NCBI GenBank assembly: GCA_965372715.1
Contig: CBDVDH010000001.1
Location: forward strand, 62,001-126,000
Direction: 5' to 3'
DNA: 64,000 bases
Source of the DNA: an uncultured bacterium
GTDB taxonomy: Bacteria; B130-G9
This document shows, piece by piece, positions 8,332 to 64,000 of the stretch; the first letter of the stretch is position 1, and every line of letters begins with the position of its first letter. The notes below the pieces were generated by a model. That model searched no databases and was not told the origin of the DNA. It saw only the letters and a list, made by a program, of their open reading frames with translations. A program made the translations under genes and the position numbers.

Positions 8332-9050
8332 CAGCTAGGCAAAAAGCAGTCGTCCTACTTTCCGGGGGGCTGGACTCGACGGTTGCGCTGGCTTGGGCGG
8401 TGCGGCAATACGATGTCAAGCGGGGGATTTTCGTTGGCTACGGGCACAAGGCGTTCAAGATGGAGGCGACCGCGGTCACGGGTATCGCTTGGCACTACAA
8501 GGTTGAGGTTACGAACGTCACGCTGCCATTCTACACCGAGGTGCGCCAGAGCTTCGCCGCTTTGAACAGGGATAGAGCCTCCGAAGGCTCTCCAGAGGGT
8601 CGGGGGAAGACCGATGAGGTGCGCCGGGTCTGGGCGCCAAACCGGAATATGGTGTTCGTGTCGATTGCGGCCGCGTTCGCCGAGGCGCTGGGCTGCGAGG
8701 CTGTGGTGGCCGGTTTCAACGCAGAGGAGGCGGAGCAGTTCCCGGACAACAGCGCCGAGTTCGTAAAGAGAATGAATCGGGCGCTTGAGCTCTCGACGCT
8801 TTCTCGTGTCAGGCTGGCGTGTCCTTTGATTGAACTCAGAAAGGCCGAGATACTCAGAATGGGCGTTGAGTTGGACGCGCCGCTTGAGCTCATCTACTCC
8901 TGCTACGAGGGCGATGAGATGATGTGCGGCGAGTGCATGTCTTGCGTTCGTCTGAAGGATGCCGTGTCCGAGCTTTCGGAAAAAGAAGGACTCAGCGCCG
9001 AGGTCGGGGCCAAGTTTCATGAAGCTATAAATGGCAGATTCATCAAATGA
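8328..9050 (+). CDS. queC: 7-cyano-7-deazaguanine synthase
   Basis: LLSGGLDS, PNRN, FPDNS, zinc site SCY...CGECMSC. Confidence 0.92.
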   Translation: MTARQKAVVLLSGGLDSTVALAWAVRQYDVKRGIFVGYGHKAFKMEATAVTGIAWHYKVEVTNVTLPFYTEVRQSFAALNRDRASEGSPEGRGKTDEVRRVWAPNRNMVFVSIAAAFAEALGCEAVVAGFNAEEAEQFPDNSAEFVKRMNRALELSTLSRVRLACPLIELRKAEILRMGVELDAPLELIYSCYEGDEMMCGECMSCVRLKDAVSELSEKEGLSAEVGAKFHEAINGRFIK

Positions 9051-54233: not shown

Positions 54234-55430
54234 TCATTTCTCTCCATTGGCGCCATTCATGGCAAGCCTCGGCGACAGGAACGCCAGAATCAGCTCTTTG
54301 TGTGCCTGATAGCCCCGGGGGGTCTTCACAATTAAACCGGCGTCGCAAAGCGAATTGACATCTCTCGCGAGTGTTCTCGCAGTCTTATTGGCATACGCAC
54401 GAGCGAGCTTTGGACTGACATCCGGCAACGCAGAAAGCGGGACCGGGTCCCTCAAGGGAGAGAGATCGAGCGCCAAATGCCGCTGTCGTCTTGCCGTCTC
54501 AGATCGCTTGTCTCTGAAGAATTCGTGAACGTAATTCCGCCATGTGACATCCCACTGCTGCTCCCAGATGACCCCTAATTGCAGGCTCAGACCATCCAAG
54601 AATCCCCCAATCGCGTATCTCATGAACGGCACGACGTCGCCGCCTCTCTTGCTGGCGAGATCTAGCTGCCTGTAGTATTCCGTCCGCGTGAGATTGTAAT
54701 GATTACTTAAGAGGTGCGCAGACGCTGCAGGCACCCCGGACGAGATCAGAATCTGGAACTCGAGGAGGCGAGCGGTTCGTCCGTTGCCATCTCCAAAAGG
54801 GTGAATCCAGGCGATATACAGATGAGCAACAACGGCCTTAAGAATGGCAGTAGCTATCCCACCCAGGCCATCCCTGGGTGAGAAATCAGCGCTGTTGAGC
54901 CACTTGCAGACTCTATCAAGAAGGTGCTCACCGTCCTCCGCCGGTGCGCCTCGATAACGGCCCACCGTCACACCCTTGGTGCGCAGCTGACCAGGGCGGA
55001 GGTCGTCATCTAACTCAAGGCCGCGAAGCACCATCCTATTCATCTCACAGATCATTCCCGTCGTGATCTCCGAGGTTTGTCCGCTCCCGACAAGTTTGAA
55101 GATCTCGTTACCCGCGTGGATGATGTTGTCAATCTCTTGCCGTAGATACTCCCGCGACGGAGGGAGTTTCAGCTCTCCGGCCAGATGCTGTAGAACCTCC
55201 TCCTCACTGAGAGTATTTCCCTCGATTGCGGTCGTGGCTAAGACACCCTTCGCCAAATACATTCTGTAGAGCTCCTTGGCGGTATCTGGTCGAAGCGGCA
55301 CGCGGGCAATGTGCTCACATTTGGATTGGCACTCCCCAAGCATTATCCAGAACGTCGCGGGCGCAGACCTGAGATCGGCAGAGAACTTAAGCCAGGGATG
55401 TGTCGATAGATATGTCCTATTTTCTGTCAT
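54234..55430 (-). CDS. Fic family protein with C-terminal HTH-like region
   Basis: TTAIEGN, HPFGDGNGRTAR, 'RTLARDVNSLCDAGLI'. Confidence 0.93.
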   Translation of the reverse strand: MTENRTYLSTHPWLKFSADLRSAPATFWIMLGECQSKCEHIARVPLRPDTAKELYRMYLAKGVLATTAIEGNTLSEEEVLQHLAGELKLPPSREYLRQEIDNIIHAGNEIFKLVGSGQTSEITTGMICEMNRMVLRGLELDDDLRPGQLRTKGVTVGRYRGAPAEDGEHLLDRVCKWLNSADFSPRDGLGGIATAILKAVVAHLYIAWIHPFGDGNGRTARLLEFQILISSGVPAASAHLLSNHYNLTRTEYYRQLDLASKRGGDVVPFMRYAIGGFLDGLSLQLGVIWEQQWDVTWRNYVHEFFRDKRSETARRQRHLALDLSPLRDPVPLSALPDVSPKLARAYANKTARTLARDVNSLCDAGLIVKTPRGYQAHKELILAFLSPRLAMNGANGEK

Positions 55431-55489
55431 CTGACGAGCGCCCCTAAACGCTTTCTAATAGGCATGGTATGATTTTATATCACCTATTC

Positions 55490-55525
55490 TGTCATAAGAA
55501 TTGTCATACATAATGTCATAATGAC
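55490..55525. promoter_or_regulatory. Putative operator: TGTCATA x3 at 12-bp period upstream of fic
   Basis: Copies at 55490, 55502, 55514, plus inverted ATGAC at 55521. Confidence 0.55.
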
Positions 55526-55688
55526 CTGGCCAGATCATTATGTCAAGAAAGATGTGATGCGAGAAATGAATCCCTAGCTCAATTGGGCGTAGCTTCCGCC
55601 AGTCCGCCTCTGGAAAGATGAAGGATGAAATATGAAGGATGAATCGTCCATTAGAGCCGCAATCCGAAATCGATGATCGCTGACCCGC

Positions 55689-55901
55689 TCAGCGCGCCAA
55701 AGGAACCGTTTCGAACAGGAGTCTTCGGGCATCCGCGGCGGGCGCCCGCTTGGACAGATGTAACATCTCAATGCCAACGACGCGGCCGTCTGCTCCATAA
55801 TCCAGAATAACGCCGGGCGATACTTCCTCCGATTCCGCTGCCTGGGCATCCGACAAGGTCAGATACAGGGCGTCCGCCTCTTCATCGATCCTTAGTATCA
55901 T
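55689..55901 (-). CDS. DUF2283 putative antitoxin
   Basis: D.EADALY, ESEEV.PGVILDY...G.VVGIE. Confidence 0.88.
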   Translation of the reverse strand: MILRIDEEADALYLTLSDAQAAESEEVSPGVILDYGADGRVVGIEMLHLSKRAPAADARRLLFETVPLAR

Positions 55902-56148
55902 TTCAGTTTCTTCTTTCCTCGGTCGAAGTACGCTGTCACCACGCTCGGTTCAGCGCCCTTCATATTAACTACGACACGAAGGACTCTGCCGCCGAAATCC
56001 GCAACACGCAACAGACGATGCTCCAGGTCCGAATCAAGCCGGTCTGGCTCCTTGTCTTCGGGAGAAACAAGAGCCTCCTCCACCCATTCTAGCGCATTCC
56101 CCTTTTGACAATAGCCTCTCGAGCGTGCTCAGGCAGGACGTATTTCAC
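55898..56148 (-). pseudogene. Frameshifted DUF4258 putative toxin
   Basis: MKYVLPEHAREAIVKRG in one frame continues as LEWVEEAL..P...RVLRVV...VVTAYFDR in another; 1-nt loss near 56095. Confidence 0.75.
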
Positions 56149-56255
56149 TTATCCTTCATCCTTTCTGCAAGGCTAAATTATGAGGGCTGAAGAGTGAATC
56201 ATCAATCAGAGCGCCCTTCACTTTTGCGCAAAGCTCCGTCATTGCCGCACCTCGT

Positions 56256-56654
56256 TCAGCCCTGCCTAGCCTTTGCTTGGACTTGGCTTATCAGCTTGAG
56301 CGCCTTGTCCAAATCTGCCTTGATCTCCTCGTGCTCATATTCGGCAGGAGGCCCGGGCGGATAACGCCCATCAATGTAATAGCGAGACGCTTTCTCGCAA
56401 AGCTCTAGAAAATCGCCGAAGTCATCATCGAAGCTCGCGATGTGATTGAGAAGCGCGTCAAGTTCGTGCGTCTTTGGCGGCTTCCTGCCATGAAGAACGA
56501 GGTAGCCTTTCAGATACTTCTCGATCGCCTGCTGAATGTGATACACAATAGAATCTGTGTGACCGCGCTGCTCGTAGATTAACTGCGCCGTTTCTATGTC
56601 GTGCTGACCTCTTTCGAACCACTCCTCGGCTTGTCTCTCGAAGGCCTCATCCAT
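56256..56654 (-). CDS. HEPN domain protein
   Basis: W...G..D...A, YHIQQAIEKYLKG, KTHEL, RYP. Confidence 0.9.
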   Translation of the reverse strand: MDEAFERQAEEWFERGQHDIETAQLIYEQRGHTDSIVYHIQQAIEKYLKGYLVLHGRKPPKTHELDALLNHIASFDDDFGDFLELCEKASRYYIDGRYPPGPPAEYEHEEIKADLDKALKLISQVQAKARQG

Positions 56655-56976
56655 AGAGCAGCTCTCCCCTCTCAAGTATCTCTTCGACGAAGAAATCCCT
56701 CATCGCAATTCTGTTTTCGATCTCTTTCTCAGTGTAAACAAGGGGAGACACCGACAGCCGCCGGACGCGGTCCCGGACAAGCCTTTTCACCTCAAGCCAT
56801 CTCTCAATGGGCCTCTTCTCCGTGTCCTTGATGATCAGGAGGTCAACGTCGCTATCCTCGTTTGGCTCGCCGTAAGCATAGGAACCGAAAAGAATCACCT
56901 TCTTGGGCCCATATCCCTCGACTACCCTCTGAACGATCTCAAGGATTACCTCTCTCAGTCTTCCATCGACTATCAC
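56647..56976 (-). CDS. Minimal nucleotidyltransferase (MNT)
   Basis: LFGSYAYG....DSDVDLLII; overlaps the HEPN start. Confidence 0.92.
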   Translation of the reverse strand: MIVDGRLREVILEIVQRVVEGYGPKKVILFGSYAYGEPNEDSDVDLLIIKDTEKRPIERWLEVKRLVRDRVRRLSVSPLVYTEKEIENRIAMRDFFVEEILERGELLYG

Positions 56977-57030
56977 ACTGGTACCTCCAACAGCTTCGTC
57001 GTATCGTTCCCAGATATGTCAACCACCTTG
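56973..57030 (-). repeat. Diverged second copy of the methyltransferase 3' end (KVVDISGNDTTKLLEVPV*)
   Basis: Direct repeat of 58815-58872 (KVVDIFGNDTTKLWEVTV*). Confidence 0.85.
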
Positions 57031-58818
57031 TTCTGGAAGCCGGAGGAAGGCCTGCACAATGTCAAGCATCTCATGTCTTTCCGCCCCGTTGTCCATGTAT
57101 TTGTCCCGTTCAAGAAGCTGATCCGCGGTCATTAGGCCGATCGCGTTAATCACTTCCTTGTTGAACTTCTTGAGATCTGTGAAATCGCCGCAATCGGGGG
57201 AGGGATCTCGGCAGACTCGCTTCACGGCGTCCGGATGCAAGTAATTCTCGATCTCCCTTTTCTTTGTTATGAAGAAAACCCCACCCTCAGCTTTGCAGCT
57301 GGCCTCCCAGTTGCGTTTTTTCTGGTCAATGGGCTGGTCTGGGCTTTCTTTGTCGCTGTCGATTAAGACTCCGTACCGCACACTGAGGTTACGGAGTGCT
57401 TTACGCGCAACCCAATGCTGCAGAGAATCCTTTCCACCGAGCGGGATCAGGCCAATTCTTGCCTCATCCAATGTTCTATCTATTCGTCCGGCGTTCTTTA
57501 AGAGCTTGGAGGCCCGGGTAAGAAACTTAACGTCACCCTCGCCCTCGACGAACACGCACGCTCTATAGCCGATTATCCGGTCGCACGGCTCGACACCCAG
57601 CTCGCGAGCTAGCTCTACGAGATCAAGGGCGGTGCCCTGCAAGATTTCGCCGACTCCATCTTGTCTGCGTACCAAGACCAGGTTTTGCTGGTCCGTGGAG
57701 CCCGCAAATACCGGCGAGTGAGACGAGATGAGGACTTGGCCCTCGCGGGCGATTTCGGCAAAGGAACTCAGCAGCACGCGCTGGGCGCCTGGGTGTAGAT
57801 AAGTCTCTGGTTCCTCTACAGCGAAGATCCGGCCGTGGATTTCAAGGCCCTCGCTTCTTCGCTGAGCAAGATACTGAAAATACGCAACCATGAGGAGCCG
57901 TCGTAGTCCGGATCCCCTTTTGCCGAAAGCAATTGCCTGACCTTGTGCGTCGGTGCATTCAATGCGGAACTTCACGAGATCTTTCCAGCTAAATGAGGGG
58001 TCTGGCCTCATGGAGGCCACCTCATCCGTATGCTCCTTGAGAAGAGAGTGAATCTTCTGGACCTCGTTGTCTATCCGCTCGGTAAGGCCGCGCTCGATCA
58101 AGTCCCTCCCCTCAATGTCGTGCACAGCCGTTTCGACGACTTCTTTGAACTTGCTCTGGAATGTCGTCTCCTCCTCACTCAGCCGGTAATCAGCAGGGAA
58201 TAGTGTGAACTGCGGCAGGTAGGGGCCGATCCTGTTGAGAACTCTTTCCACCTTCTCAAGCTGCCTGCGGGATTTCTGAATTCCTCGTTTGTTTGCCACC
58301 TCGCGCAGGACCTCTCGTTTGTCCTTGTTGGTGATGGCTCTCCCAGACTTCTTGAAATCGAGATGGTATGTCTGGCCGCGCTTGTTCAACTCGGGCTCCT
58401 TCAGGGAGCAGAGGTTGGAGAATTGATCATCCTCGAAGTCCTGAGCGATGATGGACTCCGCCGGTTTCTTCGTCTTCTTGCTTAGGCTATCCGGGGTGAA
58501 GGTCTTCCTTATCGTGAGTAGTCCCTCTTCGTCTAGCAGGTTTTCTGAGGAGAGTGTCGTTGGCACCCCATCCTCGAGTTCCAGTGCCTCCGGAAGGTCA
58601 GAAAAAGACACCTCAATCGACAATGCACATCCTTGGCCGGCTCCCTTTGTTAGATCCTCCTGGTCCGGAGAGCCATTGAAGAAAATCTCCAGAGCATGAA
58701 GGATGCTGGACTTGCCCGAGTCGTTCTTGCCAACCAGTGTGGTAATATCCCCTACCCTTATCTCCGTTCTCTCTGCAAAGCACCTAAACCCCTCCAACGC
58801 GATCTTGGCGATTCTCAT
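57019..58818 (-). CDS. OLD-family ATP-dependent nuclease (ABC ATPase + TOPRIM)
   Basis: GKNDSGKS, RGSG, VEEPETYLHP, SSHSP, FVEGEGD, DSD, KREIENY. Confidence 0.88.
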   Translation of the reverse strand: MRIAKIALEGFRCFAERTEIRVGDITTLVGKNDSGKSSILHALEIFFNGSPDQEDLTKGAGQGCALSIEVSFSDLPEALELEDGVPTTLSSENLLDEEGLLTIRKTFTPDSLSKKTKKPAESIIAQDFEDDQFSNLCSLKEPELNKRGQTYHLDFKKSGRAITNKDKREVLREVANKRGIQKSRRQLEKVERVLNRIGPYLPQFTLFPADYRLSEEETTFQSKFKEVVETAVHDIEGRDLIERGLTERIDNEVQKIHSLLKEHTDEVASMRPDPSFSWKDLVKFRIECTDAQGQAIAFGKRGSGLRRLLMVAYFQYLAQRRSEGLEIHGRIFAVEEPETYLHPGAQRVLLSSFAEIAREGQVLISSHSPVFAGSTDQQNLVLVRRQDGVGEILQGTALDLVELARELGVEPCDRIIGYRACVFVEGEGDVKFLTRASKLLKNAGRIDRTLDEARIGLIPLGGKDSLQHWVARKALRNLSVRYGVLIDSDKESPDQPIDQKKRNWEASCKAEGGVFFITKKREIENYLHPDAVKRVCRDPSPDCGDFTDLKKFNKEVINAIGLMTADQLLERDKYMDNGAERHEMLDIVQAFLRLPEQGG

Positions 58819-59165
58819 ACTGTCACCTCCCAAAGCTTCGTCGTATCGTTGCCGAATATGTCAACCACCTTGACCAGAATCTTGTACCAGCCAGGCTCTT
58901 CGTAAGTATGCGACGCGCTTGTCTGAAGCTTCGGCTGTTTGCGCGTCCTGAAGGACTGCCAGCCGTTGCGGAAACGCCCTTGTTTTTTGTCGTCGCGGGC
59001 GCTGTGCGTGAAGAGCTCTCGCTGCGCCTTCTCGCGGTCGGCCTTCGATTCGTTGACGCTCTCGACGACCTGAAAGGGCAGTATCGTCCTGTCAACCTTC
59101 CTGAGCTCGCCGTTCTCGTCATACTTGCCCTTCCAGACAAGCTCCGTCCTCTCAACGCCTTTCAT
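58815..59165 (-). pseudogene. Internally deleted site-specific (type III Mod-like) DNA methyltransferase
   Basis: N-terminus TELVWKGKYD...LPFQVVESVN joined to C-terminus F.N.WQSFRTRK...G.YKILVKVVDIFGNDT; no DPPF/DPPY or F.G.G motifs. Confidence 0.78.
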
Positions 59166-59216
59166 TGCTCGCGATCCTCCAATCTCCAGTCTCCAGACCG
59201 TAGTCTTCAGCCTCCA

Positions 59217-59341
59217 GCAAGTGCAGAGCATTGGAACACAGGTTTGGCGATGGATCAAGGCTTGTCGGCGTCTCGGAGTGTGCCTGAGGGAAGGTCATTC
59301 GCCGTCCCTACAAGAGCAGACGCGGGGGTCTGCCCCTACAA
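59217..59341. repeat. Promoter plus double-REP segment, copy 1
   Basis: Imperfect direct repeat of 59954-60067 (GCATTGGAACACAG...ATCAAGGCTTGTCGGCGT...CCCTACAAG.GCAGAC.CGGGGGTCTGCCCCTACAA). Confidence 0.85.
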
Positions 59342-59435
59342 TATCACAGTTCGGCCTCCACAAGTGAGGGACATCTGCTAATGTGCATATCGTTAGTGTC
59401 AGGCCGGACCTTGGCTTTAGCCGTGGCATGTCCCC

Positions 59436-59666
59436 TCACAATAGATCGCGAAACTCTTCAGCATTCAGCCCCATATCCTCCAAGATGCCTGCCAAGGTCT
59501 TGCGCTTGATGGTCTTTCCTACAAGCATGGGCACCACTATCCTGGCCCGGTCTCTCTCCCGGTAGTAAACGGCGTGGCTTCCTTTCTGACGGTCAAAGAC
59601 GAATCCCACCTTTAAGGCTGCCCTGACCACTTCCCTGCCTGTCACGATAGGGAGCTTAGGACTCAA
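59436..59666 (-). CDS. hicA: HicA family toxin
   Basis: LP..TGREVV, GF..DRQKGSH, 'I...TL..IL...GL..EEF'. Confidence 0.9.
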   Translation of the reverse strand: MSPKLPIVTGREVVRAALKVGFVFDRQKGSHAVYYRERDRARIVVPMLVGKTIKRKTLAGILEDMGLNAEEFRDLL

Positions 59667-59890
59667 AGGGCGACCTCTACTGGCTTGATGAAGATGTCCT
59701 CCACTGGCAGGGACTCGCCACGTGCGCGAAGACTCTCCAGGTACGCCTCAATCGCCTCCCTGACATTGGCGAGGGCCTCGTCCAGTGTGTCGCCCTGCGT
59801 GTGGCAACCTTTCAGGGTAGGGCAGAACGCGTGGTAGCCGCCCTCCTGTTCCCGCTCCAAAATAACCGTAAAATGATGCGTCTCCATCAT
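59663..59890 (-). CDS. hicB: HicB family antitoxin (short form)
   Basis: GGYHAFCP.L.GCHTQGDT.DEAL.NVREAI. Confidence 0.9.
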   Translation of the reverse strand: MMETHHFTVILEREQEGGYHAFCPTLKGCHTQGDTLDEALANVREAIEAYLESLRARGESLPVEDIFIKPVEVAL

Positions 59891-59953
59891 CTCCCTATCT
59901 CCTTAATCCGCAATCGGTCATCCTTCATCCTTCATCTTTCCGCCTTCATCCTT

Positions 59954-60067
59954 GCAGGTGCGAGGCATTGGAACACAGATTTGCGGCTGAATCAAGGCTT
60001 GTCGGCGTGTGCAGGGCGGGGCAAGCGCCGCCCCTACAAGGGCAGACACGGGGGTCTGCCCCTACAA
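59954..60067. repeat. Promoter plus double-REP segment, copy 2
   Basis: See copy 1; the minus strand reads TTGATT-17 bp-TCCAAT upstream of hicB. Confidence 0.85.
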
Positions 60068-60196
60068 CTTCGTCTTTGGCCCGTAGGGGAATCTGGCGTT
60101 AAGCGTCAACTGCTTATGAAAGCGGGGACCCGGTGTGGCGGGTCCCGGCTTGTGTCGAGAAACAGAGCGATAACGCAAAACGGAATCGAGGGCGAG

Positions 60197-61609
60197 GTGA
60201 GTCAGGTGGCGCAATCAGAGCTTGGGGTGCTTCAGAATGGGGGCGAATCGGGCGGGCGAGGGTCGAGCGGGACGGTTGTTTCGGGGGCGAGGCTGTCCAA
60301 CTTGACGGAGGTCGCAAGCTTCAGGCGCTGGTATAACAACCGGGACGTTCGCATTCCGCTCTACGAGAGCATGACGGCGGCTCAGCTGTCGCTCAGGCTT
60401 CCTATCTCAATCGGTATTCCCAGGCAGATAATTGACAACTCAGCTGATGCGTTGTTCGGCGACGGTCGTTTCACAGGTGTTCGAATGGTTGGCCCCGACG
60501 ACGCGGAGAGCGCCCGGCTTCAGGCGCTGTGGGATAGGGTGTTCAGCGACAATTCCATGCGACAGCGGCTCCTGACCGACGCCATCGACACTAGCATCTG
60601 CGGCGGGATATTCTACTCCATCAGTTACTGCCCGGCAGGCCCAAGCGTGTTCAAGGTGCAGTCCATTAGCTACGATCAGCTGTGGGACGTCGAGTTGGAC
60701 GAGCTCGATACCGAGAAAGTGGTGGCCTACATCTTTCAGTGGGAGCAGCTCGAACGAGACTCGGGGGACGACCAGACGAGGCGCTGGTATCGCGTCGAGA
60801 TAGACGCGGATAGGATCGTGAGGATGCGCGCCGCTCGTCCACACACAGCAGGCAACGACGGCGAGGGGGTCGAGTTCGAGGTGACGAGCGTCTCGGAGCA
60901 CAATCTCGGAATAATCCCGGTCGCACACGTCGCCAACTCCATCCAGCGGATGCGGACGGTCGGCGATTCGGACATCGCTCCTCTCGTCCCAATGCTTGAC
61001 GCGCTCAATCAAATGATGTCGGACGCCTATTGGCAGTGCTACAACGACCAGTCGATACTCAAGGCGATCAACATCGCGGCGCCGGACACTGATGACCTGG
61101 AAGAATCGGCCATTCGCCTCGGGGGAGACCAAATCCATTTCCTGACCCAGAACGAGCAGCTGAACCAGGACATCGTGCGGATGAAGCCAGTCGGCATTCC
61201 CGAGAGCTTTTTCAGGACGATTGATCTCCTCGTGGGCCAGATTTACAGGACTGCGGGTGAGTCTCATCTTGACCCGCTCAAGTGGACGGGGACCAACATC
61301 TCAGGCGTCGCGCTTCGGTTGCTTTATGAGCCGCTGGCCAAGAAAACGTATCGAAAGCGTATTTACTGGGCGTCGGGACTCGAGCGGCTCGCCAAGATCA
61401 TATTCGCCTACGCTAACTCCAAATCGGTCGTGTTGTCGGAGTCTGGCGGCTTCGTGCTTGGTGGCCCCCAATACCAACTGGACGATATTGAAGTCCTCTG
61501 GGGTTCCCTGATGCCTGGCGATGAGGTCGAAGAGCAAAAGCTGGTTCTGGACGACCTTTCGGCCGGCCTGATCGGTGTGGATGAGGCCAGGCGCAACCGG
61601 GGACTATAG
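60197..61609 (+). CDS. Phage portal protein, SPP1 gp6-like
   Basis: IID....LFG, HNLG.IPV....N, GDSDI...DALN..MSD, N.SGVALR.LY.PL..K, I.V.W...MP.DE.E. Start GTG 60197 is an estimate. Confidence 0.88.
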   Translation: MSQVAQSELGVLQNGGESGGRGSSGTVVSGARLSNLTEVASFRRWYNNRDVRIPLYESMTAAQLSLRLPISIGIPRQIIDNSADALFGDGRFTGVRMVGPDDAESARLQALWDRVFSDNSMRQRLLTDAIDTSICGGIFYSISYCPAGPSVFKVQSISYDQLWDVELDELDTEKVVAYIFQWEQLERDSGDDQTRRWYRVEIDADRIVRMRAARPHTAGNDGEGVEFEVTSVSEHNLGIIPVAHVANSIQRMRTVGDSDIAPLVPMLDALNQMMSDAYWQCYNDQSILKAINIAAPDTDDLEESAIRLGGDQIHFLTQNEQLNQDIVRMKPVGIPESFFRTIDLLVGQIYRTAGESHLDPLKWTGTNISGVALRLLYEPLAKKTYRKRIYWASGLERLAKIIFAYANSKSVVLSESGGFVLGGPQYQLDDIEVLWGSLMPGDEVEEQKLVLDDLSAGLIGVDEARRNRGL

Positions 61610-61656
61610 AAGTCGTTCGAAGTTCAAGGTTGAAAGTTCAAGGTTGAGGGTCGGCT

Positions 61657-61680
61657 GTAGGGGCGATTCACGAATCGCCC
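61657..61680 (+). repeat. GTAG-family REP between portal and scaffold genes
   Basis: GTAGGGGCGATTCACGAATCGCCC, preceded by AAGTTCAAGGTTG 7/14-mer repeats. Confidence 0.8.
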
Positions 61681-61738
61681 TTAGATTGAAAGGGGCGGAT
61701 AGACGCCTGGAACGCATTGAAAAACAAGGGAGGTTTGG

Positions 61739-62236
61739 ATGGCAGATCAGGAAACAGTCGAGGAGAGAGTGGAAGCAGGCGCTGAGGTTGAGGCGGCTGC
61801 CGAGGAATCTGAGCTGAATAGGGAAGAGGTTGAGCCCGGCCCTTCCGACGATAGGGCGGAGCTTCTGCGGCGAGCGGTGTTCGCTGAGGAGGCGCTGGAG
61901 CTCTCGCGTTATATTGGGGACAGGAACCTCTTGCAGCGGCTTCGTAGTGTGATTGCTGGCCAGACGGAGGTTGAGCTCAAGCAGAAGCTTTCAGTCTTGA
62001 AGGATGTTCTGGCGCATATCAAGGAATCTCAGGGCGGCGACCGGCCCACCCAGGAGAGTTTCAAAGAGATGGTCGCAAGCGAGGTTCAGCGGAATCTCGA
62101 TCAACTCAATAATGCCGCGGAGACGGTCGATGCGGCGGTCGGCCAGATGCCAGGCGGCAGCAGCCTGGCCGTGAAGGATAGCGCCGCATCGCGGCTGAGG
62201 CGCCTGGCTAGGGTGAGAGGCATCCTCATCAAGTAG
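61739..62236 (+). CDS. Putative capsid scaffolding protein
   Basis: Acidic N-terminus, coiled-coil character, basic C-terminal helix; lies between portal and capsid; GGAGG RBS. Confidence 0.6.
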   Translation: MADQETVEERVEAGAEVEAAAEESELNREEVEPGPSDDRAELLRRAVFAEEALELSRYIGDRNLLQRLRSVIAGQTEVELKQKLSVLKDVLAHIKESQGGDRPTQESFKEMVASEVQRNLDQLNNAAETVDAAVGQMPGGSSLAVKDSAASRLRRLARVRGILIK

Positions 62237-62309
62237 TTCCAAGTTTCGAGTTTGAAGTTCCAAGTTTCAGGTTCAAGGCATGAAAGCAATATAGGAGGAG
62301 GAAGAGAAG

Positions 62310-62732
62310 ATGGCGTGGAAGAACAAGGACGCTCGGGGCAGCTGGGAGGCGGTAGCGAGCGTTGACGTTGAAGAGAATGAACTGATGCACATCACCACTG
62401 ACGGCAAGACTGTGCTTGCCGACGCCTCAAGCGCCGTTGCGCGGGAGGCGCACGGTTTCGCTGCGCTTCGTGGTTACGAGGCTAGCGAGCGCGCGACGCT
62501 CGTGCGCAGTGGGAAGATAGCGGGGATAACCGACGACGCTGGCGACCCGTTGACGACCGGGTCGATCTATTATCTGAGCGAGACGCCCGGCAAGATCACG
62601 GCCACCAAGCCGACCGCGGACGGCGACGTGATTCAGGTTGTAGGCGTTGCTGCGGGACCCAACGAGCTCAATATCTCGATTGGGCCGGCGTTTGTGGTCG
62701 CAAGTTCAGGAACCTTTCTACGGGCTCTCTAA
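62310..62732 (+). CDS. Putative capsid decoration/cement protein (DUF2190-like)
   Basis: 'ADAS......GFA', 'LTTG.IYYLS.TPG.IT.T.P', 'QVVGVA'; immediately before the capsid gene. Confidence 0.65.
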   Translation: MAWKNKDARGSWEAVASVDVEENELMHITTDGKTVLADASSAVAREAHGFAALRGYEASERATLVRSGKIAGITDDAGDPLTTGSIYYLSETPGKITATKPTADGDVIQVVGVAAGPNELNISIGPAFVVASSGTFLRAL

Positions 62733-62794
62733 TCGACGCCCGTAGTAACCCACTGAACGACACCAGGTAACACAAAGCATGGAAGGGGAATACA

Positions 62795-63856
62795 TTGGCT
62801 ACATTTGACAGCTATCAGTATCGTGGCGGCGTCTATGTGGGCGGCGTTTACGGGACTGACACGGATATTGACTGGCGGCAGGTCCTCAAGGACGTTCAGG
62901 GCCTTGCGAAGGCCTATAACGACCGAGATGTCTCGGGTCTTGCGGACCGCTTGACTCACAAGACGACGAGCGAGGCAGTCAAGCAAGAGATAAACCGCCT
63001 GGTCGCAAAGGAGGTCGCCGAGGGGCGCGAGCCGGATGTCGAGTCCACGAGCGTCTATGAGTTTGCCCTACCGATCAAGGAGTTTGAGGTAGGGTTCTCG
63101 ATGACGAGAACCGCCCAGAAGAGGATCGATCCGAGAAGGATAGAGAACCTCTTCGCCAGCGTGATTCAGGCGCATCTTCAGCAGCGGCTCAAGAACGCAC
63201 TGACGCCCGTTTTCTCCACCAACCCGGCGGGCAGTGAGTGGGGAGGGACGTGGCAGGTGAACACCGACTGCCCTGATTTCCAGGCGAACTCGTTCTTTGG
63301 CACGCCGCACACTCACATTTTTGCCAGGACCGCGACCAGCCTGACGTTCGATCATCTGCGGATGCTGGCCGAGGAGATACAGCATCATGGTTTCGGCGCA
63401 CCGGGCGTCTATGGTGAGAAGACCCTGCTGCTTCTGTTGAACGTAGCTCAGGCAAATGACTTAATCCAGCTCGCAGACTGGACAACATACTCAGGACTGC
63501 CTGACTCTGTCGTTGAACGACTCGCGCTCGACGGGATCAACGTCAATCAGGGCATAGGTGGGTTCATCGTCAACGTCAACAACATGATTCCGGAGAACTA
63601 CGCGGTTGCCATCGCTCTCGACACGCCGTATCCGGCGGTCACGACACGCGTTGAGCGGCAGCGTCAGTATCAGGGGCTCGTGATTGAGACGCCATTTGAG
63701 GGCTCGCAGTATCCGTTCCGCGATTCTGTGTTCACGTTTTCGGAGGGCTGCACATTGACGCAGCCGAGCGCGGTTGCGGTTCTCATGCTTGGCGCCGATG
63801 ACAACAGCACGGACGAGGACATCAGCGATTATGTAGTGCCCGAGTTCTACGCGTAG
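62795..63856 (+). CDS. Putative HK97-fold major capsid protein
   Basis: 353 aa; 'EVAEG.E........LPIKEFEVGFSMTR' E-loop-like segment, 'HHGFG....LLLLN', 'T.PSAVAVL'; position in head module. Confidence 0.72.
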   Translation: MATFDSYQYRGGVYVGGVYGTDTDIDWRQVLKDVQGLAKAYNDRDVSGLADRLTHKTTSEAVKQEINRLVAKEVAEGREPDVESTSVYEFALPIKEFEVGFSMTRTAQKRIDPRRIENLFASVIQAHLQQRLKNALTPVFSTNPAGSEWGGTWQVNTDCPDFQANSFFGTPHTHIFARTATSLTFDHLRMLAEEIQHHGFGAPGVYGEKTLLLLLNVAQANDLIQLADWTTYSGLPDSVVERLALDGINVNQGIGGFIVNVNNMIPENYAVAIALDTPYPAVTTRVERQRQYQGLVIETPFEGSQYPFRDSVFTFSEGCTLTQPSAVAVLMLGADDNSTDEDISDYVVPEFYA

Positions 63857-63870
63857 AAAGGGGAATTGAC

Positions 63871-64000
63871 GTGAACGCTTCAGACTTCGAGGTAAGGCTC
63901 CGGGCAGTGCTTTCGGACCTTTCGGAACAGCTTACGGACGGGCAATTCGAGCAGGCGATCGCTTCTGCGACCGATATAACAGGGATTTCACTGCCGACAA
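63871..64000 (+). CDS. Partial ORF, probable head-tail connector (runs off the window)
   Basis: GTG after AAAGGGG RBS; MNASDFEVRLRAVLSDLSEQLTDGQFEQAI resembles gp15/gp6-like N-termini. Confidence 0.5.
   Translation, partial: MNASDFEVRLRAVLSDLSEQLTDGQFEQAIASATDITGISLPT

Follow-up and report, generated by a model that had tools for sequence, protein, structure and literature searches.

A phage-derived portal and capsid operon with an unlinked terminase: a candidate gene transfer agent-like system kept across a sampled bacterial phylum

What are a portal gene and a capsid gene doing in a bacterial genome with no terminase next to them? The question is raised by the end of a 64,000-nucleotide stretch of an uncultured bacterium (the window: positions 62,001 to 126,000 of contig CBDVDH010000001.1, here C1, of assembly GCA_965372715.1). 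A first-pass annotation of the sequence had described there a stand-alone phage head operon with host repeats in its spacers, and had proposed a long-resident, host-maintained module, possibly a particle of the gene transfer agent (GTA) kind. We compared it across seven species genomes (a family that is, as sampled, the whole of a small uncultured phylum); all are metagenome-assembled genomes (MAGs), some titled Candidatus Coatesbacteria, and the genome carrying the window is called G000. The features are listed below, in window coordinates unless a contig is named.

60083..60205, + strand: conserved 5' leader, left boundary of the block, aligning in 7/7 genomes
60206..61609, + strand: portal protein, SPP1 Gp6 type, 467 aa from the conserved start (PF05133 and phrog_64 matches)
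61613..61685, no strand: heptamer/14-mer run and REP hairpin in the portal-scaffold spacer (from sequence, TRF and genome counts)
61739..62236, + strand: 165-aa acidic protein, scaffold-like (position and composition)
62236..62278, no strand: imperfect heptamer run, AGTTCCA/AGTTTCA class (spacer sequence)
62310..62732, + strand: 140-aa protein, directly before the capsid gene (phrog_4368)
62795..63856, + strand: major capsid protein, 353 aa (phrog_3990)
63871..64000, + strand: start of gene 5, an ORF of 127 aa that ends at C1:126254, outside the window
C1, beyond the window: genes 6 and 7, ORFs of 239 and 169 aa
C32:93-2209: genes 8, 9 and 10, ORFs of 286 aa, 110 aa and 224 aa, the last DpdA-like

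The open reading frames lie where they had been annotated, Shine-Dalgarno-like GGAGG/GAGG sequences are found upstream of the genes, and two labels are confirmed by family matches. The first product is a portal protein, with matches to SPP1_portal (PF05133; E 2.2e-16, 60.3 bits for a cut-off of 25.5) and to the portal family phrog_64 (2.8e-20); it is 22-23% identical to Bacillus phage portals and 71-94% identical to its orthologues in the phylum. Its start, placed at 60197 at first, is probably the (G/T)TG at 60206, the conserved position, 60197 being the alternative. The fourth product is a major capsid protein (phrog_3990, 'major head protein', 3.5e-23), 24-26% identical to those of the Mycobacterium phages Barnyard and DrLupo and of Microbacterium phages; at 85-99% identity among orthologues (dN/dS 0.03-0.07), it is more conserved than RpoB. 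The scaffold label stands only in position and composition, and putatively: the 165-aa protein, 57-94% identical among orthologues (dN/dS 0.13-0.31), has no match in Pfam, PHROG or NCBIfam. The decoration and connector labels found no supporting family match. The 140-aa protein (dN/dS 0.05-0.16) matches phrog_4368, a family of unknown function (2.5e-9), has a weak, sub-threshold match to Pfam XM1_gp53_minor_capsid (E 0.096) and does not resemble the minor capsid protein that DrLupo encodes at this place; it is possibly a minor capsid or decoration protein.

Only the first half of the operon, which we call locus B, falls within the window. The whole spans about 8 kb and ten collinear genes; the conserved leader motif opens it and a gene for a DpdA-like DNA transglycosylase closes it, the order being portal, scaffold-like, 140 aa, major capsid protein, 127 aa, 239 aa, 169 aa, 286 aa, 110 aa and DpdA-like. 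The genes first annotated are real, but they are not the complete set. After the portal, scaffold-like, 140-aa and capsid genes (60206-63856), the operon is interrupted by the window edge at 64000, then by the end of C1, 1716 bases further on and inside a genome-wide REP; it resumes on contig C32, a link made by tblastn with the contiguous locus of a same-genus genome. The right boundary is the DpdA-like stop codon, beyond which lie non-aligning sequence and cellular genes. On the left, sequence farther 5' than the leader does not align between genera. The leader consists of GTAGGG-N13-AAGCNNCAACTGCTTA, a variable hairpin, GAGGTG (Shine-Dalgarno-like) and the start codon, and its full motif has a single occurrence in the 3.56-Mb genome. 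It is a candidate promoter or operator; it has no Rfam family match at E<=1 and no match in a sigma-70 consensus scan, and RNAalifold (-7.8 kcal/mol, covariation term near 0) lends weak support to a hairpin structure.

Could the block be an ordinary or decaying prophage, its remaining genes on unassembled contigs? The assembly breaks inside the operon, through which neighbours first seemed missing, and one frame break near residue 190 of the G002 portal speak for it. The continuation on C32, closed by the DpdA-like stop codon and then cellular genes, speaks against it, as do the surroundings. As had been claimed for the sequence upstream of the portal, C1 is free of terminase Pfam families and of tyrosine integrases; the five tyrosine-integrase matches of G000 are on C2, C11, C12 and C18, all outside C1, C32 and C68. 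Integrase, replication and terminase Pfam domains are absent from the flanks of G000, G001, G003 and G004, and no att-like structure flanks the block in these four genomes. Its GC content (0.58-0.59) is similar to that of the remainder of the window. Presence is not patchy either: each of the seven genomes has one copy of locus B, and the capsid protein was found in 7/7 phylum genomes and 0/54 other sampled genomes. In G001, G003, G004 and G005, all ten genes keep the same order and have uninterrupted reading frames, and the G006 contig stops within gene 5. Together with the low dN/dS and the co-divergence with RpoB described below, these observations contradict the prophage hypothesis, which we consider very improbable.

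Between genera, dN/dS in locus B is 0.03-0.36, rough values since synonymous sites approach saturation (pS 0.5-0.79); between G000 and G001 it is based on few changes and reaches 0.58 (gene 5). For that pair, dS is 0.02-0.19 in locus B, 0.05-0.22 in the terminase locus described below (locus A), and 0.05 in rpoB. At the sequence level, both loci have diverged in step with host RpoB: identities to G000 are 96.5, 84, 83, 84, 82 and 78% for RpoB and, in the same genome order, 99, 86, 88, 88, 85 and 87% for the capsid protein and 97, 79, 80, 78, 77 and 70% for TerL. The block tree has 3 of 4 internal splits in common with the RpoB tree (built with incomplete RpoB sequences of G004, 404 aa, and G005, 972 aa), and one differs. 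Single-copy, syntenic orthologues had been suggested as a sign of host maintenance; copy number and collinearity bear this out, but the flanks, made of cellular or defence genes, differ between genera, and pure vertical descent without much rearrangement would not predict this.

The spacers do carry repeats of host classes, as first annotated. Between portal and scaffold-like genes lie a heptamer/14-mer run (about 61613-61649; TRF array at C1:123620-123647) and a GTAGGGGCG...CGCCC REP hairpin (61657-61681); for the run at 62236-62278, TRF called no array at the thresholds used. Genome-wide counts agree: GTAGGGGC has 505 occurrences for about 173 expected from base composition, and period 7 represents 205 of 949 TRF arrays, the commonest units including AACTTGG and AAACTTG, the unit classes of the locus B spacers. 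Host repeats have invaded the spacers of locus B, another point against a prophage. REP copies occupy different spacers in G000, G001 and G003; none was found in the locus B spacers of G002, G004 and G005. A long-resident, host-maintained module is well supported by all this, and we regard domestication as very probable.

An unlinked large terminase had been suggested as a target for a genome-wide search, and one exists, so that 'stand-alone' was only half right: locus B has a partner locus.

G000, C68:10253-13263: locus A, with a TerS-like 162-aa ORF, a divergent 647-aa TerL and a 137-aa region-4 protein

TerL sits, on a contig other than that of the capsid genes, between the TerS-like ORF and the 137-aa protein, which combines a Cys-rich N-terminus with a sigma-70 region 4 domain. 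It matches phrog_2 over residues 79-633 (2.7e-12) and no Pfam terminase model. The phrog_2 profile is promiscuous (matches in 13/14 control genomes), and the identification therefore rests on the full-length match, motifs and a fold search. G..SGK, IDEAS, HID.., D517, D591 and D594 are invariant in 11/11 TerL sequences and are putatively the Walker A motif, the Walker B motif and, for the last four, the nuclease acidic residues. The AlphaFold2 model has a mean pLDDT of 57.5; its PDB matches at ranks 1-35 are nearly all large terminases (HK97 best, at 4.8e-9, then Sf6, D6E and T4 gp17), non-terminase chains appearing from rank 42, and the G20c nuclease domain is matched with a target TM of 0.61-0.65 (rmsd 4.2-4.6 A). 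TerL is single copy, without internal stops, in 7/7 phylum genomes, with one 29%-identical match among 54 other genomes; locus A is collinear in 5/5 genomes examined (dN/dS 0.06-0.35). A 122-kb IMG/VR viral contig encodes a TerL 24% identical to this one (1e-23), with a weakly portal-like ORF about 1 kb downstream. Co-occurrence of the two loci, in only seven related genomes, suggests that they are functionally coupled; they have no upstream motif in common, so that their co-regulation is unsupported. A search of RNA runs for the sequence found it in none.

We therefore favor, with a probability of roughly 0.6, a phage-derived system for capsid formation and DNA packaging, encoded at two loci, that would be vertically inherited, kept functional phylum-wide and work as a GTA-like particle. 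In such a scheme, either the region-4 protein or some host signal would turn on loci A and B; portal, scaffold and capsid protein would assemble into a procapsid; TerS/TerL would cleave DNA and pump it into the procapsid, chromosomal DNA being the only packaging substrate since there is no replication module; the DpdA-like enzyme would replace guanine by a 7-deazaguanine base derived from host preQ0 and so protect the packaged DNA against restriction; and genes 5 to 9 would close the head and make a neck or short tail. What we infer in this scheme is that the two loci cooperate, that host DNA is packaged, that particles are released and deliver it, and what genes 2, 3 and 5 to 9 do. That the system makes DNA-filled capsids seems rather likely; that it is a true GTA transferring random host DNA is a tentative proposal, for which we would give somewhat less than even odds. 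In its architecture it may be called GTA-like, and 'candidate', the term first applied to this possibly new particle, is the right strength.

A different use of the same genes deserves consideration. A satellite-like or defensive capsid module would stay silent until a related tailed phage infects, then build its own capsids and steal the tails of that phage, or soak up phage parts; the phage would be blocked and host DNA perhaps spread, in the manner of capsid-forming PICIs (cf-PICIs). These and other phage satellites likewise have a compact head and packaging set without tail genes, among defence-type genes. Here, Pfam tape-measure (PF10145), sheath (PF04984) and baseplate J (PF04865) models matched in 0/5 genomes, and tail borrowing would explain such a head-only set. 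The G000 block adjoins a defence island (SoFic, 1.7e-54; an AriA/OLD/GajA-like ATPase, 4.8e-42; toxin-antitoxin pairs), genes of toxin-antitoxin or conflict type flank the block in G001 (HicB, SecB-like) and G003 (AAA_27, TCAD9, PD-(D/E)XK), and the same MAG contains a phage contig, C81. However, judged by the generally known gene content of cf-PICIs, the defining parts (integrase, replication module, excision) are absent; presence in 7/7 genomes and host-like divergence are unlike patchy mobile satellites; and since terminase and capsid genes are on different contigs, the set could not move as one unit. The TerL of C81 occurs in only 1/7 genomes, so that no conserved helper is in sight. We find this explanation unlikely.

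Alternatively, the capsids may be tail-less or stub-tailed and serve for biofilm-matrix DNA export, DNA storage or as a protein or nucleic-acid container, that is, packaging without directed gene delivery. No tail, receptor-binding or lysis genes have been recognized, yet purifying selection acts on all ten genes. Genes 5 to 9 have no match among Pfam, PHROG or NCBIfam families or PDB sequences, nor do they resemble the tail terminator and tail tube of the phage with the nearest capsid protein. Yet downstream of the capsid gene, the genes are laid out in parallel to the part of siphovirus genomes, such as that of DrLupo, that encodes neck, tail tube and chaperones; DrLupo has its 281-aa major tail protein at the place of gene 8 (286 aa). 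The gene 8 model is poor (pLDDT 45.9), and its best structural matches are tail-hub/tube-like proteins and a phage structural protein, the tail-hub-like ones at Z 4-5.4, under the level that the search tool calls meaningful. Gene 6 is the fastest evolving (50-59% identity, dN/dS 0.23-0.36), and rapid change is common in exposed receptor-binding proteins. We know of no system of the container kind, and hold this reading to be more doubtful still than the satellite-like one.

How does the GTA-like reading compare with known particles? GTAs are described as a core cluster plus scattered loci, without replication genes and resembling phage remnants (PMC11841831, in excerpt), and the RcGTA activator GafA as having a sigma-factor-like C-terminus (PMC6363796, in excerpt). 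GTAs of the RcGTA type (RcGTA of Rhodobacter capsulatus, CcGTA of Caulobacter) are also phage-derived head and packaging sets, kept clade-wide by the host under purifying selection; as with RcGTA, we find more than one locus, no replication or integration genes, and a small regulator with a sigma-factor-like domain nearby. The RcGTA g3-g10 order is paralleled here, with portal, capsid protein, small neck genes, a gene of about 280 aa and a small gene. TerS/TerL head the main cluster of RcGTA, whereas here they are on a contig apart from the portal. No sequence relationship to RcGTA is detectable. In contrast to it, the portal is of the SPP1 type, a scaffold-like gene takes the place of the protease, the capsid protein is nearest to actinophage proteins (24-26% identity), neither a tape measure gene nor genes for distal tail, hub or fibre are recognized, and the operon ends with a DpdA-like DNA-modifying enzyme. 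BaGTA (Bartonella), VSH-1 (Brachyspira), Dd1 (Desulfovibrio) and VTA (Methanococcus voltae) are multi-locus GTAs that arose repeatedly from different phages (PMC11841831, in excerpt); none is from this phylum, and they are set beside the present loci by description. In seven of the eight papers found to name Coatesbacteria, the title and the beginning of the abstract make no mention of GTAs or domesticated phages.

The tailed phages with the same portal and capsid families (Bacillus phages 268TH002 and phi18-2, Mycobacterium phages Barnyard and DrLupo; 22-26% identity) have the order terminase, portal, scaffold or minor capsid protein, capsid protein, neck, tail tube, chaperones. In them, the terminase lies directly before the portal, where we find the conserved leader, and a tape measure follows the chaperones, where we find the DpdA-like gene. 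This last gene matches phrog_887, queuine tRNA-ribosyltransferase (9.3e-40); within the literature searched, the one paper that mentions both gene transfer agents and DpdA concerns, by its title and the beginning of its abstract, an Alteromonas siphophage. QueC, which bears on the substrate for a DpdA-like enzyme, was found in 7/7 genomes.

The block begins with five open reading frames placed head to tail in the window, on a host contig of 127.7 kb (C1) that carries both the portal and the major capsid protein genes. Its GC content (0.58-0.59) is like that of the rest of the window.

60197/60206-61609, + strand, gene 1, portal
61739-62236, + strand, gene 2, 165-aa scaffold-like protein
62310-62732, + strand, gene 3, 140-aa protein
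62795-63856, + strand, gene 4, major capsid protein
from 63871, + strand, gene 5, of which a 43-aa fragment reaches the window edge

The first gene is predicted to encode an SPP1-type portal: residues 36-411 align on positions 12-350 of the 416-position Pfam model PF05133 (SPP1 Gp6-like; E = 2.2e-16, 60.3 bits against a gathering cut-off of 25.5), and the protein also matches phrog_64 (2.8e-20). The product of the fourth matches phrog_3990, a major capsid protein family (3.5e-23). For these two proteins, the nearest cultured-phage sequences are only 22-26% identical. The portal and capsid identities proposed by the first-pass annotation are thus borne out, whereas its 'scaffold', 'decoration' and 'connector' were positional guesses: neither the 165-aa protein, the 140-aa protein nor the 43-aa fragment matched a named family.

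The same annotation had described a stand-alone head operon with no terminase in the 60 kb upstream, and the 'stand-alone' part has to be revised, as the operon continues on a second contig (C32) and an unlinked large terminase (TerL) gene exists on a third (C68). The window corresponds to G000:C1:62001-126000. C1 terminates at 127,716, inside a copy of a host repeat (REP), after three more genes (127, 239 and 169 aa); the REP at this end is present on dozens of contigs, often at their extreme ends. The other species of the genus has a contiguous locus, whose following proteins align with the beginning of C32 at 95-97% identity, and the genes found there after the join encode proteins of 286 aa, 110 aa and 224 aa, the last being DpdA-like. 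On the left, alignment between genera sets in sharply some 120 nt upstream of the portal gene, with a leader (GTAGGG-N13-AAGCNNCAACTGCTTA) kept in all seven genomes of the phylum and occurring once in the G000 genome, from which the window comes. On the right, nothing aligns among genomes past the stop codon of the DpdA-like gene, and ordinary genes follow. Given these two edges, we define locus B as the leader plus ten genes, about 8 kb in all.

Among the terminase models, PF03354, PF04466, PF17289 and PF20441 from Pfam had no match in any of five genomes, phrog_38 gave one weak match only, and the ORFs behind weak PF03237 matches in G005 and G006 (E 0.005-0.009) were uninformative. The sole match of the Pfam terminase models in G000 is on a phage-like contig, C81 (L009, G000:C81:1-10982, GC 0.538), which encodes a 181-aa basic ORF and a 505-aa TerL (PF03237, 28.7 bits), followed by ORFs of 624, 336, 384 and 491 aa. 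We rejected it as the missing terminase, since its TerL is followed by ORFs of its own and is present in one of the seven genomes; C81 is a phage particular to this strain, a piece of a prophage or a passenger from binning.

PHROG numbers were then taken from the terminases of the nearest phages. The phrog_2 profile matched an ORF of about 650 aa in all five phylum genomes searched, and also rang in 13 of 14 control genomes, so that the candidate protein was tested directly. Together with its two neighbours, it forms locus A:

G000:C68:10253-13263, locus A, three genes (TerS-like ORF, TerL, region-4 protein)
G000:C68:10611-12554, TerL (phrog_2, 2.7e-12 over residues 79-633)

Our Pfam scan returned no family for this protein; PF27249 is the Pfam entry listed in the protein database for its homologues. 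In 11 of 11 homologues the motifs G..SGK, IDEAS and HID do not vary, nor do three more Asp residues. A distant homologue contains intein domains. In an AlphaFold2 model of mean pLDDT 57.5 (core blocks 70-86), the top Foldseek hits against the PDB (ranks 1-35) are nearly all large terminases, with nuclease domains at target TM 0.61-0.65. Sequence and model together identify the protein as a TerL. The gene is single-copy and stop-free in all seven genomes (70-97% identity). The search for an unlinked TerL suggested by the first-pass annotation was thus successful. In G000, the 122 kb before locus B and the 39.5 kb after it contain no TerL, and in G002 loci A and B lie on separate contigs of 74.5 and 22.8 kb.

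Upstream of TerL and overlapping it, a 162-aa ORF is present in five of five genomes; it matches no PHROG or Pfam family, and its position alone makes it a TerS-like candidate. Downstream, a 137-aa protein combines a Cys-rich N-terminus with a Sigma70_r4_2 domain (8.4e-12, 45 bits against 25.7). Gene order across the three is the same in five of five genomes, dN/dS is 0.06-0.35, and their neighbours, partly syntenic between genera, are cell-envelope genes (GT2, an ArnT-like membrane protein). Five of five genomes also share two invariant motifs, AAACCGCGTACA and AAAACGAGAATC, about 180 and 105 nt upstream of the start of the TerS-like ORF (G000:C68:10071-10160). Each is unique in the genome, and they are probably the promoter or operator of locus A. 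No regulatory motif common to loci A and B was found upstream of the two; before the portal we found no sigma-70-like promoter, and no Rfam family matched in window 59800-64000. As a practical warning, Pfam terminase models were blind to this TerL and the assembly was broken within the operon at a host repeat: either accident alone would have yielded the wrong reading of a terminase-less head operon.

How is this system distributed? Of 61 genomes searched, 7 encode the capsid protein: all seven of the family (four genera) and none of the 54 from other phyla. A phylum-wide search returned the same seven, which are the whole phylum in the collection; two of them are titled Candidatus Coatesbacteria at NCBI. 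Locus B is present in one copy per genome, so that the single-copy orthologues looked for in relatives are there in seven of seven. In G001, G003, G004 and G005 all ten genes keep their order and an uninterrupted frame, and the G006 contig stops within gene 5. The G002 portal gene falls into two frames close to residue 190 (locus L010, G002:C121, 3226-3241), a break that could be real or a sequencing error. An identical break, with the same identity values, occurs in a JGI metagenome contig (L028, 3212-3227), which is probably the same assembly as G002.

Identity to G000 (%) of RpoB, the major capsid protein and the portal
Genome; RpoB; capsid protein; portal
G001; 96.5; 98.6; 94
G002; 83.8; 86.1; 77-79
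G006; 83.0; 87.8; 77
G005; 83.6 (972 aa); 88.1; 77
G004; 81.7 (404 aa); 84.7; 72
G003; 77.6; 87.0; 71

The least conserved of the ten is gene 6 (50-59% identity between genera). Between genera, dN/dS against G000, a measure that the first-pass annotation had asked for, is 0.03-0.36 for locus B, with synonymous sites near saturation. For the close pair G000-G001, dS is 0.02-0.19 and dN/dS 0.07-0.58, the dS of rpoB being 0.05. Congruence with the host tree holds in part: the concatenated tree of the ten proteins and the RpoB tree have three of four internal splits in common, but disagree on the attachment of G003 and G004, RpoB being partial for G004.

In large protein collections, lookalikes are scarce. 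Only 32 were found for the capsid protein at E<=0.001 among 1.84 billion representatives, and only eight protein clusters for gene 8 among 5.8 billion. Metagenome proteins (P0009, P0008, P0053-P0056) belong to a more distant lineage with relatives of the capsid protein (59% identity), gene 8 (48%) and TerL (48-57%), which indicates that the system extends beyond the seven genomes; a single metagenome contig, 1.6 kb long, matched these distant relatives. The high lysine content of P0009 suggests an organism of lower GC. Among viral contigs, neither the capsid protein nor its 59% relative had a match, and TerL had one only, a protein 24% identical (1e-23) on a 122-kb contig, where an ORF that weakly resembles a portal lies 1 kb downstream of it.

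The flanks bear on whether the block is a mobile element. The first-pass annotation had held that integrase, replication and terminase genes with att sites downstream would mark an ordinary or decaying prophage. In the flanks of G000, G001, G003 and G004, Pfam detects no integrase, replication or terminase domain, several flanking ORFs being family-less. PF00589 has no match on C1, C32 or C68, the five tyrosine-integrase matches of G000 all being on other contigs. The block was accordingly not read as an integrated prophage: no integrase, att site or contiguous replication, tail or lysis module is recognisable with it, and it is bounded by the leader and the DpdA-like stop. No lysis gene is recognisable inside locus A or locus B. 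A phage satellite of the PICI or cf-PICI type was likewise set aside, for want of an integrase or replication domain in the flanks and because presence in seven of seven genomes with host-like divergence is not patchy.

Flanks are not of phage type and differ from genus to genus. In G000 they comprise a defence island upstream and, downstream, unknown ORFs and then metabolic genes. Those of G001, G003 and G004 include HicB, a SecB-like protein, 2'-5' RNA ligase, HEAT repeats, an AAA ATPase, an APH-type kinase, GT87, a PLP enzyme, an FGE-sulfatase, and large Ig-like and beta-helix proteins. The G000 island (window 54234-59890) adjoins the upstream side of the block; its three small toxin-antitoxin-like gene pairs were recognised by eye:

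54234-55430, SoFic-like Fic protein (1.7e-54)
55689-56083, small TA-like gene pair
56256-56976, small TA-like gene pair (HEPN/nucleotidyltransferase-like)
57019-58833, AriA/OLD/GajA-like ATPase (4.8e-42)
59436-59890, small TA-like gene pair (HicA/HicB-like)

In G001, three small genes follow the DpdA-like gene: one of 127 aa, one of 175 aa from the HicB family and one of 157 aa that is SecB-like (L012, 9444-10814). The same set lies 3' of the DpdA-like gene in a metagenome contig from another genus (L029, 5723-7090), and G000 is without it. These trios look like a toxin-antitoxin-chaperone module.

Taken together, the evidence fits a phage head-and-packaging apparatus that an ancestor shared by the sampled phylum took over and that has stayed functional ever since, its genes divided between at least two loci. 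We put the probability that the system is domesticated and host-maintained at roughly 0.85. By the evolutionary tests that tell a maintained system from a fossil remnant, the block counts as maintained, and its phylum has no cultured member.

Genes 5-9 have no match in Pfam, PHROG, NCBIfam or PDB profile searches, and hhalign and BLASTP comparisons with the tail tube, tail terminator and minor capsid proteins of phage DrLupo gave no similarity. Their order and sizes resemble those of the genes for neck, tail tube and chaperones in siphoviruses such as DrLupo, a 281-aa major tail protein occupying the place of gene 8 in DrLupo. For gene 8, ESM Atlas leads are viral hypothetical proteins (0.90) and tail-tube families (0.87-0.88); for gene 6, nothing exceeds 0.79. 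The gene 8 AlphaFold2 model is poor (pLDDT 45.9); its best matches, suggestive only, are a structural protein of a Salinibacter phage (Foldseek 3.7e-5, TM 0.36) and a run of tail-hub, gp27 and VgrG-type chains (Z 4-5.4). The models PF10145 (tape-measure), PF04984 (sheath) and PF04865 (baseplate J) have no match in five of five genomes.

Missing tail genes and the defence-island setting favour the main rival explanation, a defensive, satellite-like head module that takes its tails from infecting phages. The lack of any mobility genes and the strictly vertical pattern argue against it; we hold it improbable.

A domesticated, host-maintained system in turn raises the question of whether it is a gene transfer agent (GTA), as the first-pass annotation had proposed with its candidate GTA-like capsid system. 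That candidacy is strengthened by the head genes, the intact TerL, the split loci, the lack of replication, integration or lysogeny genes in the scanned flanks, and vertical descent in seven of seven genomes under purifying selection. Genes spread over several loci are one mark of a GTA; here C68 carries locus A, and C1 and C32 carry locus B. The coding sequence amounts to about 10 kb. Further marks of a GTA would be a small terminase without a specific DNA-binding domain, a DNA-delivering tail, lysis genes, and particles that bring recipients random pieces of host DNA too short to encode the whole system. Excerpts of a review (PMC11841831) depict GTAs as a core cluster with scattered loci, without replication genes and with the look of a phage remnant, a picture that the architecture of loci A and B matches; the same excerpts count the phage-remnant look, the split loci and the origin from different phages among the obstacles to genomic discovery. 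The activator GafA of RcGTA has a sigma-factor-like domain, according to excerpts of its description (PMC6363796), as the 137-aa protein of locus A has a region-4 domain. We consider it somewhat probable that the capsids get filled with DNA, and a true GTA possible but less likely than the opposite.

The last gene of locus B adds a further element. Its 224-aa product matches phrog_887, queuine tRNA-ribosyltransferase (9.3e-40, residues 1-197), which we take to be the DpdA kind of phage enzyme; Pfam, NCBIfam, PADLOC and PDB sequences gave no match. That selection has kept such a gene at the end of the operon is unusual. QueC, of the preQ0 pathway, is present in all seven phylum genomes, and in G000 it is full-length, 52 kb upstream of the block (window 8343-8972; G000:C1:70343-70972). 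The DpdA-like gene and the ubiquity of QueC suggest that packaged DNA may be modified. The fullest scenario would be a whole phylum with an independently evolved GTA, its motor (TerS/TerL with a region-4 sigma-like activator) and head at separate loci, with a minimal neck or stub and no measured tail, whose cargo of random host DNA would be marked with 7-deazaguanine by the DpdA-like transglycosylase and so survive the restriction of recipients. We regard this complete version as rather unlikely. If active, the system would be one of the principal ways in which these bacteria, which occur in salt-marsh and cold-seep sediments, exchange genes.

To our knowledge, only a handful of GTAs are known, almost all found experimentally in cultured bacteria. 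In a full-text search, none of the listed papers mentioning Coatesbacteria had a GTA topic as far as titles and abstract beginnings tell. No work combining GTA-like, MAG, capsid, terminase and selection was found, and searches on recent novel GTAs turned up known systems only. In the literature searched, 'gene transfer agent' and 'DpdA' occurred together only in work on an Alteromonas siphophage. As a kind, the domesticated phage particle is already known; what we rate as new here are the lineage, the separation of terminase from portal, the DNA-modifying enzyme within the operon and the tail's apparent want of a length measure. Among domesticated phage particles, a terminase parted from its portal would be new, as would a DpdA-like DNA-modifying gene kept in the operon.

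Finally, the host repeats reported in the spacers of locus B are indeed present, as a GTAGGGGCG hairpin at 61657 and heptamer runs. The 8-mer GTAGGGGC has 505 copies in the genome, against about 173 expected, and the REP family (GTAGGGGC-N6-20-GCCC) has 389 hairpin-form copies genome-wide. As it terminates many contigs, it is a main cause of the fragmentation into 112 contigs. Period-7 arrays make up 205 of 949 TRF tandem arrays genome-wide, with AATCCGC, AAGGATG, AACTTGG and AAACTTG as top units, and the commonest units include those of the locus B spacers. Such short heptamer arrays recall the heptamer STRR repeats of cyanobacteria. Examples of both classes are:

window 61657-61681, REP copy
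window 60016-60067, REP copy in opposite orientation
C1:127660-127716, REP copy
window 59918-59953, heptamer array (TCATCCT x5)
window 61620-61647, heptamer array

REP copies occupy different spacers in G000, G001 and G003, and no spacer in G002, G004 and G005, as expected if host repeats had moved in independently once the lineages had split.
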